Source: Escherichia phage HX01
DNA length: 64,000 nucleotides
Reading direction: 5' to 3' (one strand)
Sequence record: NC_018855.1
A program made the position numbers and the translations under genes. Positions 7,590 to 29,769 of the stretch are shown here, in pieces; the first letter of the stretch is position 1; each line of letters opens with the position of its first letter. Below the pieces are notes generated by a model. It was given only the letters and a program-made list of their open reading frames with translations, made no database searches and was not told the DNA's origin.

Positions 7590-8080
7590 TGATTAACAAA
7601 ACATATTGGTCTAATATAGACGATAGCAATGAAGGTATTTCATACTATTCAGTAGATTGGACAGGATGTCCATCCTACTTAGTGAAAAATATTTGCCAAG
7701 AATTTAAAATCGACCAGCCAGCAGGTATTATCGTGAACAGATACATTAATGGATATCAACCTATCGATGAAGTAATACGAACAACTCAAGCTGAGCTTGA
7801 AAGGTTTTTCAATAAGTGCCAATGGATAACAGGATGGATTATATTTGTACCATCTATATGGTTTTTCAGTACTAAGGTGAGTTCTTTCGGTTTTGTTGAT
7901 ATTATTGCTATCTTATTAGCATCTAGTATCATAAGTGTTGTTGGTGGCATCATTGGCGGCGGTACCGCCGCCATCATTATTAATCTTGTTAAAAGTAGTT
8001 TACAAGAACATAAAGACAAGATAAAAGCCAAGAATAATGAAGTTGAACGTTTTATTACCGAATGCAGGAATTTGAGATGA
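7589..8080 (+). CDS. membrane protein with glycine-zipper TM segment, C-terminal ERFITECRNLR
   Basis: 163 aa; VVGGIIGGGTAAIII. Confidence 0.6.
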   Translation: MINKTYWSNIDDSNEGISYYSVDWTGCPSYLVKNICQEFKIDQPAGIIVNRYINGYQPIDEVIRTTQAELERFFNKCQWITGWIIFVPSIWFFSTKVSSFGFVDIIAILLASSIISVVGGIIGGGTAAIIINLVKSSLQEHKDKIKAKNNEVERFITECRNLR

Positions 8081-8313
8081 GTATAGCAATTTACATTAAA
8101 TCAGAATCATGTGATTCTTATCTGTATTCCTATGATACCGGAACGTCAGAAGAGAAAATCAAAGAAGATTTAGAAAGCGACTTGGATATGTTCCGACCTA
8201 TTTCTGATTATATGGTCCAAATATCTGATAGTGAAAGTCCGTCAACAGAAACATGTGTTGAAATTATTATACGAGATATCTTTAAACAATCATGGGACCG
8301 AGATGATGAGTAA
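8077..8313 (+). CDS. hypothetical acidic protein
   Basis: ORF track 8062..8313; ATGA overlap start at 8077. Confidence 0.5.
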   Translation: MSIAIYIKSESCDSYLYSYDTGTSEEKIKEDLESDLDMFRPISDYMVQISDSESPSTETCVEIIIRDIFKQSWDRDDE

Positions 8314-8761
8314 GAAAAATAAAGTGAAAGAACTATCAGCCGGTATTATTTTCCTTACCGAAGATAAAGAATTATTCATGGGGCGTGTAACTGGTTCTCG
8401 TCCTAAAGGTTCTTTAGCTCATCGGTGGGATATTCCTAAAGGTCGTGTCGAGCCCGGTGAATCTCCTATCGAAGCCGCTATTCGTGAATGCGAAGAAGAA
8501 ACTGGGTTTACACAATATGACCCTGCCTTCCTGAAAGACCTAGGTGAACATCATTACTCAGACAATAAGAATATTCACCTGTTCCTATATACCATCCCTG
8601 TAGAGCACGAGCAATTCAGAAATAGTGTTTGTAATTCCTATCATACATTCCCAGACGGACGTCAGATTCCTGAATTTGATGCATTCGCTTTAATTAAACC
8701 TTCTCAATGGGAATATGTAATGGGCAAATCATTATATAAGGTGCTCACTACCCTCCTATAA
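8303..8761 (+). CDS. nudE: Nudix hydrolase (T4 NudE / e.1-like)
   Basis: Nudix box GRVEPGESPIEAAIRECEEETG; lies just upstream of lysozyme as in T4; start trimmed to ATG 8303. Confidence 0.8.
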   Translation: MMSKKNKVKELSAGIIFLTEDKELFMGRVTGSRPKGSLAHRWDIPKGRVEPGESPIEAAIRECEEETGFTQYDPAFLKDLGEHHYSDNKNIHLFLYTIPVEHEQFRNSVCNSYHTFPDGRQIPEFDAFALIKPSQWEYVMGKSLYKVLTTLL

Positions 8762-8795
8762 GTAATAAATACCTCCTATAAACGTGGGAGGTATT
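8757..8795 (+). promoter_or_regulatory. late-promoter-like element plus hairpin covering the lysozyme ribosome-binding site
   Basis: AATAAATA 8764-8771 (one mismatch to TATAAATA); 9-bp inverted repeat AATACCTCC 8768-8776 / GGAGGTATT 8787-8795. Confidence 0.5.
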
Positions 8796-9284
8796 ATGAA
8801 TATATTTGAAATGCTTCGTAATGACGAAGGTCTTAGACTGACTTTATACAAAGACACTGAAGGCTTTTGGACGATTGGCATAGGCCATTTAGTAACAAAG
8901 AACCCATCTTTAGCCGTAGCTAAAGCTGAACTTGACAGAATGATCGGCCGTAAATGCAACGGTACAATTACCCTTGATGAGGCTGAAAAGCTATTTAATG
9001 AAGACGTTGATAAAGCCGTTCGCGGAATCTTGGGTAATGCTAAACTTAAACCGGTATACGATTCTTTAGATGCGGTTCGTCGTTGTGCATTGGTCAATAT
9101 GGTCTTCCAAATGGGTGTAGCAGGCGTCGCCGGTTTTACTAATTCTCTTCGTATGCTTCAACAGAAACGTTGGGACGAAGCGGCAGTAAATCTAGCCCAA
9201 TCTAAATGGTATCGTCAGACACCCAATCGCGCGAAACGCGTAATATCAACATTTAAAACAGGAACTTGGAAAGCGTATATATGA
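8796..9284 (+). CDS. e: lysozyme (endolysin), T4 e homolog
   Basis: MNIFEMLR...DEAEKLF...[41 protein letters not shown] matches T4 lysozyme from memory. Confidence 0.95.
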
Positions 9285-9549
9285 AAACATATAGTGAATT
9301 TTTATCAGAATCTATTCTTAACGAAGCTACTGACACATTTGCAACTAAGTTAGGTGCAGCTTTGGTTGAAGCCGAAAGTCTATTAGCACGTATTTTAAGA
9401 TAGATACTCGCAAATTTGAACGTACCAGTGATATCGTTAAGCTTGAAGCCTTGTTGCGTATGTGTGATAAACCGGAAGAAATCGCTAAGAACGGCTCGCT
9501 GATGAAACAACGTCTTGAAAAATATATTTCAGGCGCTTCAGAAAAATAG
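9281..9549 (+). pseudogene. frame-disrupted internal-protein-like gene
   Basis: ATG 9281 (ATGA overlap with e) encodes [10 protein letters not shown]... for 40 codons to TAG 9401-9403; coding-like sequence continues in the +2 frame to TAG 9547-9549. Confidence 0.45.
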
Positions 9550-9550
9550 T

Positions 9551-9605
9551 GTTTACTTCCTCCAAGGGTTTTGATACTATACATTCATCAACTACTTGGA
9601 GGAAA
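9551..9605 (+). promoter_or_regulatory. early promoter with inverted repeat covering the denV ribosome-binding site
   Basis: GTTTAC 9551-9556; perfect 10-bp inverted repeat TTCCTCCAAG 9557-9566 / CTTGGAGGAA 9595-9604. Confidence 0.55.
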
Positions 9606-9607
9606 TT

Positions 9608-10021
9608 ATGACTCGTATCAATTTAACACTTGTTTCTGAACTGACCGACCAACATCTTATGGCTGAGTATCGTGAATTACCACGCGTATTTGGTGCAGTC
9701 CGTAAACATGTTCAAAACGGTAAACGTGTAAAGGATTTTAAAATCTCCCCGACATTTATCTTAGGCACAGGTCATGTAACATTCTTTTACGACAAACTCG
9801 AATTTTTACGTTTACGTCAAATCGAGCTAATCGCTGAATGCTTGAAACGTGGTTTCAAAATCAAGGACACGACTGTCCAAGATATTTCCGACATCCCTGC
9901 CGAATTTCGTAATAATTATGTCCCGACCGAAGCGTCCATTGCGATAAGTCAAGCTCGTTTAGATGAAAAAATTGCTCAACGTCCTACTTGGTACAAATAC
10001 TATGGTAAATCAATTTACTAA
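9608..10021 (+). CDS. denV: endonuclease V, pyrimidine-dimer DNA glycosylase
   Basis: [34 protein letters not shown]... matches T4 DenV from memory; ORF track start trimmed. Confidence 0.93.
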
Positions 10022-10112
10022 GGAAAAAGGTTGCGATGGTAAAGCTTAAACAGTTTACGCTTAAGTATTAATATGGTATAATTACTCTATCAAAACAAAC
10101 AAGGAAACAAAA

Positions 10113-10415
10113 ATGAAAACATATCAAGAATTTATTACTGAAGCGCGAGTGAGTGCAGGTAAATTAGAAGCCGCTATAAATAAAAAGGCCCATTCATTTC
10201 ACGATTTGTCCGATAAAGACCGTAAGAAACTTGTAAGCCTTTATATTGACAAAGAGCGTATTCTCGCTCTTCCTGGCGCTAATGAAGGTAAACAGGCCAA
10301 GCCTTTGAATGCTGTTGAAAAGAAAATTGATAACTTTGCTTCTAAATTCGGTATGTCTATGGATGACCTTCAGCAAGCGGCTATCGAAGCAGCTAAAGTA
10401 ATTAAAGGTAAATAA
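10113..10415 (+). CDS. ipII: internal protein II-like
   Basis: 100 aa, N-terminus MKTYQEFITEARVSA (capsid-targeting-like). Confidence 0.65.
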   Translation: MKTYQEFITEARVSAGKLEAAINKKAHSFHDLSDKDRKKLVSLYIDKERILALPGANEGKQAKPLNAVEKKIDNFASKFGMSMDDLQQAAIEAAKVIKGK

Positions 10416-10417
10416 CA

Positions 10418-10450
10418 GTTTACTTTCTCCTAGAATTGTGATAGTATAAT
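10418..10450 (+). promoter_or_regulatory. early promoter
   Basis: GTTTAC 10418-10423, TATAAT 10445-10450. Confidence 0.45.
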
Positions 10451-10472
10451 CATAATTACTTGGAGAGGTAAA

Positions 10473-10546
10473 ATGACTCGATGAAAAAATTTTAATGAAG
10501 CCACACTGGTATAAGTATTAAGGCAAAAATATTTACATTCAAATAA
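10473..10546 (+). pseudogene. remnant of a denV-like gene (start fused to 3' end)
   Basis: ATG-ACT-CGA (MTR, as denV start) then TGA; following sequence reads DEKILMKPHWYKY*GKNIY, paralleling the denV C-terminus [19 protein letters not shown]. Confidence 0.4.
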
Positions 10547-10687
10547 CATGGGAACAAGCTGGACCTCATGATTCTATGAGGGATTCCCGCCAACCTGTAA
10601 TAAGGTCGAGTCCAAGTGCGGTAATGGGTAAATACAGAAATGGACAATTCATGTGCCATGGAATGGCCCAAACTTAGAGAGAACAAA

Positions 10688-11227
10688 ATGAAAACATTTT
10701 TAACTGGACCTTATCTATCCCTGATGAATGCTTTTACACACCATTCTGATGCTAGAGTAGAAGAAATTTGTAAGAACGGTTATGTCCCACCATTTGAAGA
10801 CATACTCAAGCAGTACTGTACACTTCGTTTAGACGGTGGCAGACAATCAGGTAAATCCACTGCAGTAACTAATTTTGCTGCTAATTGGCTGCACGACGAT
10901 GGAACAGTTATTGTTCTTTCTAATACTTCAGCTTATGCTAAAATTTCTGCTGGCAACATTAAAAAAGAATTTTCTCGTTATTCTAGCGACGATATTCGAT
11001 TCCGTTTATTTACTGATTCTGTCCGTAGTTTTATTGGCAATGAAGGTTCTAAATTCCGTGGATTAACGCTTTCTCGTATTCTGTATATAATTGACGAGCC
11101 TATTAAAGCTCCTGATATGGATAAGATTTACAACATACATATTAAAACAGTCCAACACTGTTGCAAAAGCAAATATTGCATCAGTGGTATTGCTCGTCCT
11201 CAATTTTTTGTGATTGGAATGCAATGA
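10688..11227 (+). CDS. P-loop protein (Walker A GGRQSGKST), function unknown
   Basis: ORF track 10640..11227; ATG 10688 after SD AGAGAGAA. Confidence 0.55.
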   Translation: MKTFLTGPYLSLMNAFTHHSDARVEEICKNGYVPPFEDILKQYCTLRLDGGRQSGKSTAVTNFAANWLHDDGTVIVLSNTSAYAKISAGNIKKEFSRYSSDDIRFRLFTDSVRSFIGNEGSKFRGLTLSRILYIIDEPIKAPDMDKIYNIHIKTVQHCCKSKYCISGIARPQFFVIGMQ

Positions 11228-11532
11228 TGACCACTATTGAAGTTTTTGAGTATTGTTATAACAGCCCAGTATGCAATAAAAGGGCTCTTGTAGAAAATTA
11301 TGAGATTTACCATTTTAAACCTAAACGATACCGTTTGACTAAAGGTCCGTTCGCAGGGCAGCAGGTTCTTTGTACTGCTCCTAATGCACGGTTGATGACT
11401 AGTATTCCGCATTTCAAAATGGAATTTATTGATGGGCCATTTAAAGGATTAATCACTCAAAGTTTAATGGCGTTTAATTCCGACCCATTTTTGATTAAAG
11501 AAAAAACTTGGATAAATTTATTTTCTAATTGA
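11224..11532 (+). CDS. hypothetical protein
   Basis: ORF track 11161..11532; ATGA-coupled start 11224. Confidence 0.5.
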   Translation: MMTTIEVFEYCYNSPVCNKRALVENYEIYHFKPKRYRLTKGPFAGQQVLCTAPNARLMTSIPHFKMEFIDGPFKGLITQSLMAFNSDPFLIKEKTWINLFSN

Positions 11533-29553: not shown

Positions 29554-29769
29554 ATGTATAAATTTCGTAAAGGTTTAGCTGATTTTCTTACAACTGTAAC
29601 GTTCTTTTTGTTTATGGCAGTTGGAGCTATTTTTCTTATTCCTTTTACTGTTGTATTTTTCTTGATTAGTTTAATTTCTCCGGAAAAGGGATTATCCTCC
29701 AGCGAATTCAATGAACGTTTGGACAAAATTACTAATAAACTGAATTCTGTTCTTGATAAAAAGGCTTAA
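29554..29769 (+). CDS. small membrane protein
   Basis: ORF track 29530..29769; ATG 29554; hydrophobic core. Confidence 0.5.
   Translation: MYKFRKGLADFLTTVTFFLFMAVGAIFLIPFTVVFFLISLISPEKGLSSSEFNERLDKITNKLNSVLDKKA

Follow-up and report, generated by a model that had tools for sequence, protein, structure and literature searches.

What lies between an internal-protein gene and vs.8 in the genome of Escherichia phage HX01 is very probably the carcass of a repair gene that came from elsewhere. Positions 10418-10546 (+ strand) of the window, by which we mean the whole 64,000-nt stretch of record NC_018855.1 that was analyzed, are best explained overall as a pseudogene of an imported T2/RB68-type denV, then gutted by a 347-bp deletion between short repeats. 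The product of denV is endonuclease V, a pyrimidine-dimer glycosylase. On the evidence of its sequence, the remnant is the wreck of a T2/RB68-type allele and not a copy of the resident denV, which sits intact a short way upstream. It matters little in itself. The structured RNA element that adjoins it is of greater value, and we return to this below.

The region is T-even phage DNA. Over 9250-10750 it comes closest to two GenBank records, ECCR664 and that of the JS09-like Mosigvirus ZQ3, with 98.5-98.7% identity. The local map starts with the lysozyme gene e, ending at 9284, followed by a short internal-protein (IP) gene (9281-9549). Next comes the resident denV (9608..10021, + strand), an intact working copy of the RB69/T4 type encoding 137 aa (Pfam Pyr_excise, E 3e-14; PHROG 1183, E 1e-62), whose product is 99% identical in amino acid sequence to RB69 DenV. 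After it stands an ipII-like internal-protein gene (10113..10415, + strand; PHROG 7857 internal virion protein, E 4.5e-55), and both IP genes open with identical capsid-targeting codons. The remnant fills the space between the ipII-like gene and a 140-nt gap (10547-10687). Beyond the gap is the first gene 3' of the remnant, a vs.8 homologue (10688..11227, + strand; PHROG 1488, E 4e-78), which carries the annotation vs.8 in JS09, RB68, and RB69.

Two neighbors deserve a word of their own. The first IP gene after e is a homologue of JS09_055 and RB69 ORF127 (93 aa), but it has suffered a 13-bp deletion, CTGAACTTGCTAG being absent between 9395 and 9396; the resulting frameshift runs into a stop at 9401-9403 and leaves 40 aa. 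An intact 282-nt version is annotated in JS09, ZQ3, and W143. The frameshifted gene may represent another pseudogene, or the deletion may be an error of sequencing. Far to the left, at 514-600, lies a homologue of rnaD, a small stable RNA of T4 (GCCGGGTCGCTACCGGCAAGTCGTCGGACTGATGTTCCCTGAGTAAGGA...). It comes about 370 nt after a tRNA-Arg gene (73-149), with an inserted ORF in between; in T4, rnaD follows the tRNA directly, with no intervening ORF.

The remnant itself is easily taken apart. A T4-type early-promoter motif (10418..10447, + strand), presumed from its sequence to be active, begins only 2 nt after the ipII stop codon. Its -35 region, GTTTAC, occupies 10418-10423 and is separated by a 17-nt spacer from TG-n-TAGTAT, an extended -10 whose TAGTAT hexamer (10442-10447) overlaps a TATAAT at 10445-10450. 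The Shine-Dalgarno sequence of the former denV, GGAGAGG, follows at 10462..10468 (+ strand), and then a residual frame, ATG ACT CGA TGA (Met-Thr-Arg-stop; 10473..10484, + strand), whose first 8 nt are the denV start, ATGACTCG. A lone GACTCG (10475..10480, + strand) marks the deletion junction: comparison with the intact denV of JE01 and VIPECOOM01 identifies it as what is left of two direct repeats. The last 20 codons of a T2/RB68-type denV (10481..10542, + strand) then follow, 95.8% identical to the 3' end of JE01 denV; read from 10480 they give DEKILMKPHWYKY*GKNIYI, the asterisk being a stop. That stop is a nonsense change, TAC to TAA, at 10519-10521, and the former denV stop at 10540-10542 has gone the other way, from TAA to CAA. 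Both substitutions are common to N2, W143, and ZQ3, and the CAA change is also found in JS09 and ESCO47. The original prediction had described an early promoter and Shine-Dalgarno sequence ahead of ATG-ACT-CGA-TGA, and every one of those statements holds on a direct reading of 10418-10484.

It had also noted that the tail parallels the C terminus of DenV. The likeness to the resident protein is real but weak: 14 of 20 amino acids (tblastn E 3e-5). A 60-mer of the tail matches the resident denV at 36 of 60 nt without gaps (60%). On neither strand of the 64-kb window does that 60-mer have a better non-self match, the runner-up scoring 33, and the value stands about 5.4 standard deviations above a background with mean 17.1 and standard deviation 3.5. 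Against JE01 denV the picture changes entirely. From the promoter to ATGACTCG the remnant is 98.4% identical (62/63 nt), in the 3' part 95.8% (69/72 nt), with E values of about 1e-31 for each end, and tblastn aligns the tail with JE01 DenV residues 118-138 at 20 of 21 amino acids (E 5e-9). The promoter region likewise agrees at 62 of 63 nt with the stretch that precedes intact denV in both JE01 and VIPECOOM01. RB68 denV is a little more distant, at 58/63 from promoter to ATGACTCG and 59/64 in the 3' part. Similarity to denV at the nucleotide level, on which the prediction had been staked, is thus marginal when sought in the resident gene and decisive when sought in the JE01-type allele, and the alignment to related phages that it called for gives 96-98% to JE01-type denV at both ends. 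The two allele types are well separated, RB68/JE01-type and resident RB69/T4-type denV sharing about 68% nucleotide identity (some 32% of positions differ). The product of the nearest intact allele, JE01 DenV, matches T4 endonuclease V in the PDB with E 2e-69. In the Tequatrovirus phages JE01 and VIPECOOM01 the gene order is e-ipIII-ipII-denV-vs.8, as in T4. A deletion of Ip4, considered from the RB68 comparison as an explanation for the remnant's 3' end, was dropped, since the stop codon of JE01 denV abuts the spacer directly.

How the gene lost its middle can be read from the intact alleles. The denV genes of JE01 and VIPECOOM01 contain GACTCG twice, at positions 3-8 and 350-355 of the gene, 347 bp apart. 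The window keeps exactly one GACTCG, at 10475-10480, and nothing of the intervening sequence, which appears in a multiple alignment as a clean internal gap. This is the signature of a deletion between direct repeats, with the repeat at both ends of the missing segment in the intact allele and a single copy remaining. Together with the JE01 matches at either end, the gap bears out the idea of a promoter-bearing remnant of a second denV with its interior deleted. Since 347 is 3 x 115 + 2, the deletion shifts the reading frame, which accounts for the Met-Thr-Arg-stop frame. The 347-bp deletion between the perfect GACTCG repeats took out codons 3-118, and with them the whole catalytic domain. Point changes built up too, producing the nonsense codon and removing the original stop.

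The consequences for function are plain enough. In the intact proteins Pyr_excise covers residues 1-87, and since the remnant has lost this domain completely it cannot make endonuclease V. A functional DenV calls for an uninterrupted ORF of about 138 aa carrying Pyr_excise; here the ORF is three codons long. In T4 endonuclease V, catalysis depends on the N-terminal amine of Thr2 and on Glu23, and Arg3, Arg22, and Arg26 contact DNA. Only Met-Thr-Arg remains in frame here; residues 4-118 are absent, so the catalytic and DNA-contact set is incomplete. The remnant, by all appearances, is an ordinary pseudogene with no repair-enzyme product.

Where did a second denV come from? The mosaic structure of the region points the way. 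From 8000 to 10028, taking in e, the first IP gene, and the resident denV, the window is 94% identical to RB69 and 71-79% identical to Tequatrovirus. From 10101 to 10480, the ipII-like gene and the head of the remnant, it is 98.2% JE01-like, and this segment is absent from RB69. From vs.8 onward it is again RB69-like (93%, against about 78% for JE01). In three-way alignments the switch on the left falls within the opening codons of the IP gene, whose promoter is that of RB69 ORF124c, and the crossover on the right falls near the start of vs.8. Comparison with the RB69 genome reveals no remnant at this locus. Because the resident region is RB69-like while the ipII-like gene and remnant head are JE01-like, the second denV copy came in by recombination with another T-even lineage, and it came to rest in the very slot where T4 itself keeps denV (ipII-denV-vs.8). 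In the simplest history, as the comparison shows, homologous recombination put a JE01-like ipII-denV cassette in place of ORF124c/ORF123c in an RB69-like (Mosigvirus) genome, with crossovers in the conserved first IP codons on the left and near the vs.8 start on the right. As a denV already stood between e and the IP genes of the recipient, the phage would have carried two for a time, until the incoming one decayed. We infer this two-copy intermediate. Transfer from Tequatrovirus to Mosigvirus or the reverse, and deletion before or after import, would each fit. A search with a synthetic query joining RB69-type denV to a T2-type interior found no phage with both denV genes intact; 2 of 479 records matched it in two separate places. 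That query is confounded, single mosaic genes matching both halves. In slur07, ime09, Kha5h, and other phages, a single denV matches the RB69-type and T2-type halves at about 88%, which suggests that such genes may be mosaic alleles from recombination inside the gene.

The original prediction had taken another route to the second copy: an in situ tandem duplication of the resident [internal protein][denV] pair, with the second denV internally deleted. The layout it described is certainly there, in the order e-IP-denV-IP-remnant, and both IP genes do begin with the same capsid-targeting codons. Origin by duplication is another matter. A duplicate should be closest to its neighbor, yet the remnant shares only 60% identity with the resident denV as against 96-98% with the JE01-type gene; the second IP gene, missing in RB69, is JE01-like at 98%; and the two promoters are only about 80% alike, with gaps. 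The layout stands; the duplication behind it we regard as very improbable. Chance similarity or an artefact of assembly is scarcely credible in the face of E values of about 1e-31 to JE01 and an identical junction in 16 independently deposited records. Import of a JE01-like cassette and its subsequent decay remains our explanation.

The exact junction occurs, in a single piece, in 16 phage/GenBank records, in 15 of which it is unannotated, an omission that is readily corrected; the intact gene occurs in four (JE01 and VIPECOOM01-03). Tequatrovirus N2 is instructive. Its gene order is e-denV-ipII-remnant, the denV being an intact T2-type gene, and its remnant shares with that of the window both the junction and the two point changes. 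The shared junction and shared point changes, N2 included, indicate that the allele would have arisen once and that it travels with ipII as a cassette; they point to a single origin of the window-type junction, then to its spread.

Not every loss at this locus has that origin. JS09 carries at the same place a 45-aa "DenV" (JS09_060, YP_009037383.1), in which the first 35 denV codons are fused to the last few bases of the gene. Many Tequatrovirus phages, the RB68 group, have a denV that matches its N-terminal piece with 91-93% identity, as against only about 82% for T4. This JS09-type allele, present in five records, has a 292-bp deletion between GGCAAA repeats, and its surviving codons carry R3Y, E11K, L12F, R22C, and V31I, at positions where the DenV proteins of T4, RB68, JE01, and the window all agree. 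The truncated DenV coding sequences of JS09, pEK20, and ESCO47 share with the window their locus (ipII to vs.8), the type of the parental allele, and the lost stop. The JS09 deletion is nevertheless a different one, which keeps codons 1-35, and neither allele can derive from the other. To judge from these differences, the JS09-type deletion is independent of the window-type deletion. Mosigvirus ESCO47 (OM386662.1) goes further still. Its complete genome of 162,477 bp holds no intact denV, only a JS09-type remnant at 29628-29756, and its sequence makes it a natural denV-null phage. Since ESCO47 does without any intact denV, a backup copy is not a precondition for loss. (One of its genes, ESCO47_00050, is labelled "pyrimidine dimer DNA glycosylase"; it has no similarity to DenV and looks mis-annotated.) Across phages, then, denV has been lost repeatedly.

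The promoter has fared better than the gene. Our criteria for an early promoter of the T4 type were GTTTAC, a spacer of 16-17 nt, and TAnnAT with an upstream TG, on the early strand and followed by a Shine-Dalgarno sequence and ATG; all of these are found at 10418-10447 and just beyond. A census of GTTTAC-N17-TAnnAT in the window gave 19 sites on the + strand, most of them just before a Shine-Dalgarno sequence and ATG, and none on the - strand. A generic scan for sigma-70 promoters and terminators missed 10418-10447 because its hexamers score 8/12, and found no + strand terminator either. A further early-promoter motif lies 5' of the ipII-like gene at 10053-10082, with no + strand terminator-like site between it and the remnant. 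The remnant's promoter probably still fires and would add to the read-through from the ipII promoter into the structured RNA element and vs.8.

Has selection kept it for that purpose? The idea would be that the dead gene's early promoter feeds an undescribed pseudoknotted phage RNA (10547-10649) and is retained because the RNA and the vs.8 gene block need it. The two independent deletion alleles both retain the promoter, and its -35 and -10 hexamers are unchanged in the window, W143, JS09, and N2 while the Shine-Dalgarno sequence has decayed in JS09 (GGATGGG), ESCO47 (GGGTGGG), and N2 (AGAGAGG). The RNA element, moreover, begins only 4-8 nt past the old denV stop. Against this, both deletions end inside the gene, so the promoter's survival may be incidental; the other early-promoter motif lies 5' at 10053-10082 with no terminator-like site in the way; RB69 and RB68 have different genes, not the remnant's promoter, directly 5' of the RNA element; and the sample is small and its sequences closely related. 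We put the idea forward tentatively and think it on balance doubtful. Far less can be said for the three-codon ORF, or the overlapping ATG AAA AAA TTT TAA, as a functional leader peptide or upstream ORF. A good Shine-Dalgarno sequence and an ATG are in place, but the ORF is an automatic result of the frameshift, the JS09 allele codes instead for an unrelated fusion of 42-45 aa, and the Shine-Dalgarno sequence is mutated in the three phages just named. Such a role is highly improbable.

This brings us to the neighbor. A pseudoknotted RNA-like element occupies 10547..10649 (+ strand), where a covariance model made with the T4-like copies scores a match of 62.5 bits (E 1e-13). Its helix P1 pairs GGGAA (10550-10554) with UUCCC (10584-10588); the P2 hairpin is at 10564-10581 and the P4 hairpin at 10593-10606. 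In order, the fold comprises P1, a strand "a" in the P1 loop, the P2 hairpin, P3 enclosing P4 and a short P5, and finally, toward the 3' end, a strand "a'" (10635-10637) whose pairing with "a" (10559-10561) makes the pseudoknot. P4 has the form nCCU-GUAAnA-AGGn. The distal domain is a three-way arrangement with invariant CCUGUAAnAAGG / AGC..GCGGUAA.

We hold with considerable confidence that this structure is real. In a MAFFT alignment of 22 distinct T4-like copies, not fitted to any structure, 93.5% of cells pair, as against 20-51% when the partners are slid; compensatory changes affect 7 of 19 pairs, and one pair of the pseudoknot occurs as CG in 12 copies, AU in 5, UA in 3, and GC in 2. A model-based alignment of 35 sequences has compensatory changes in all five P1 pairs, and the pseudoknot, which is absent from the model, pairs in 70% of cells against 25-48% for slid partners. 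Because the other helices of the 35-sequence alignment were fitted to the covariance model, it is the unfitted alignments that carry the weight. P5 as a 5-bp helix is unsupported, its inner two pairs alone holding. Folding the spacer as a single sequence is unremarkable (z = -0.05), and RNAalifold on nine sequences of the spacer was uninformative.

The spacer follows denV in T4 and JE01 and Ip4 in RB68. By blastn the stretch is present in more than 1,000 phage records, including T4-like phages of Klebsiella, Salmonella, Enterobacter, and Citrobacter in which Vs.8 is no more than 40-48% identical. Classified records with copies fall in Tequatrovirus, Mosigvirus, Gelderlandvirus, Kanagawavirus, Moonvirus, Gaprivervirus, and Marfavirus. 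Scanning IMG/VR with a pattern turned up the motif again in contigs of unrelated phages, and at the seven loci with mapped tRNAs it lies beside the tRNA array on the same strand, once between the last tRNA and a terminator. The covariance model finds exactly one copy in the window (10547-10649), one in T4 (T4 GT7 L006:2919-3021), and full-length matches in 16 non-T4 contigs. Among 185,579 genomes of bacteria and archaea, a stringent pattern matched in just one. The genes 3' of the RNA in the non-T4 phages are unrelated to one another, with no common cis-regulated gene among them.

Several further features caught our eye. Some phages have two tandem copies of the element (L061 and L019). In five non-T4 IMG/VR contigs (L029, L041, L070, L074, and L088) the motif lies inside a series of cassettes near tRNAs, framed by near-identical inverted segments (ACAACAGGTAAGAGCAyT ... 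AGTGCTCTTTCCGTTGTG); from their sequence these look like an array of hairpin-framed small RNAs. In the window a second conserved block, ATGTGCCAnGGAATGGCC, at 10651-10668, would form the hairpin GCCA-nGGAA-UGGC about 20 nt 5' of the vs.8 start. This block is kept throughout the T4-like genera that were compared, even at the locus in Marfavirus F48.

Other identities for the spacer were tried and set aside. It does not code for protein in a conserved manner: on the + strand a frame closes after 33 aa in the window, JE01, RB68, N2, and VIPECOOM01, and indels disrupt it in the RB69-type sequences; on the - strand, direct reading finds that the same RB69 indel breaks the frame. No tRNA or tmRNA identity was found. 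Homology to T4 rnaC or rnaD was rejected too, the covariance model having no match in the T4 tRNA/rnaC/rnaD region. Rfam 15 had no match in window 10000-11000 at E<=1; in 12 related loci Rfam returned only tRNA and group I intron matches elsewhere in the loci, and for two compact copies at E<=10 nothing credible. A literature search with sequence strings of the element and for vs.8 brought up nothing useful. The element is apparently undescribed.

In T4 and JS09 the spacer is read as an N-terminal extension of Vs.8, making a protein of 216-217 aa. The T4 version (T4 GT7 L006:2948-3598) is 216 aa long, its extra 37 N-terminal residues coming from reading through the structured element, and JS09 is read through in the same way from L001:3331 onward. 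Read this way, the long 25-kDa annotation of Vs.8 in T4 is probably an over-extension. The spacer folded into that annotation would instead be a conserved structured RNA with a pseudoknot and, if confirmed, a new phage RNA family in a well-studied genome.

How, finally, do these elements compare with what is known? With T4 denV and its product endonuclease V (PF03013 Pyr_excise; PDB 2END and 1VAS), the remnant is homologous through the start, ATGACTCG, and the last 20 codons. It differs in lacking codons 3-118, in its broken frame, and in its nonsense codon, and the enzyme cannot be encoded. Modular shuffling of T-even internal-protein loci was reportedly described by Repoila et al. in 1994. 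Exchange at conserved sequences of these loci is documented for T4-type phages (PMC2839356), and the window resembles it in having crossovers in the conserved 5' codons of the IP gene and in conserved flanks. T4 deletions of 0.7-6 kb flanked by short microhomologies (typically 6-10 bp) arise readily, including at ipIII (PMC9391042), and the deletion in the window, between 6-bp direct repeats, is of the same kind. The remnant is thus a tidy natural example of two processes known in T-even phages, the exchange of IP-locus cassettes and the removal, through deletion across 6-bp repeats, of a gene that the phage can spare. It is unlike the promoter-early stem-loop (PeSL) cassettes in having no stem-loop beside its promoter: 9200-11300 holds no terminator-like site on the + strand, and 2 nt separate the ipII stop from GTTTAC. 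For the RNA element the nearest parallels, which we take no further than a lead, are nested double-pseudoknot RNAs such as the HDV-like or theta ribozymes that sit beside phage tRNAs. In the linker leading to its 3' strand the element has no invariant C, nor does its P1 open with a conserved G-U, and its distal domain (CCUGUAAnAAGG...AGC...GCGGUAA) is highly conserved, in contrast to an HDV-type P4. What it shares with them is the order of its helices (P1, then a strand in its loop that pairs to the 3' tail, then the inner hairpin, then the distal domain) and, in other phages, a home in tRNA arrays.
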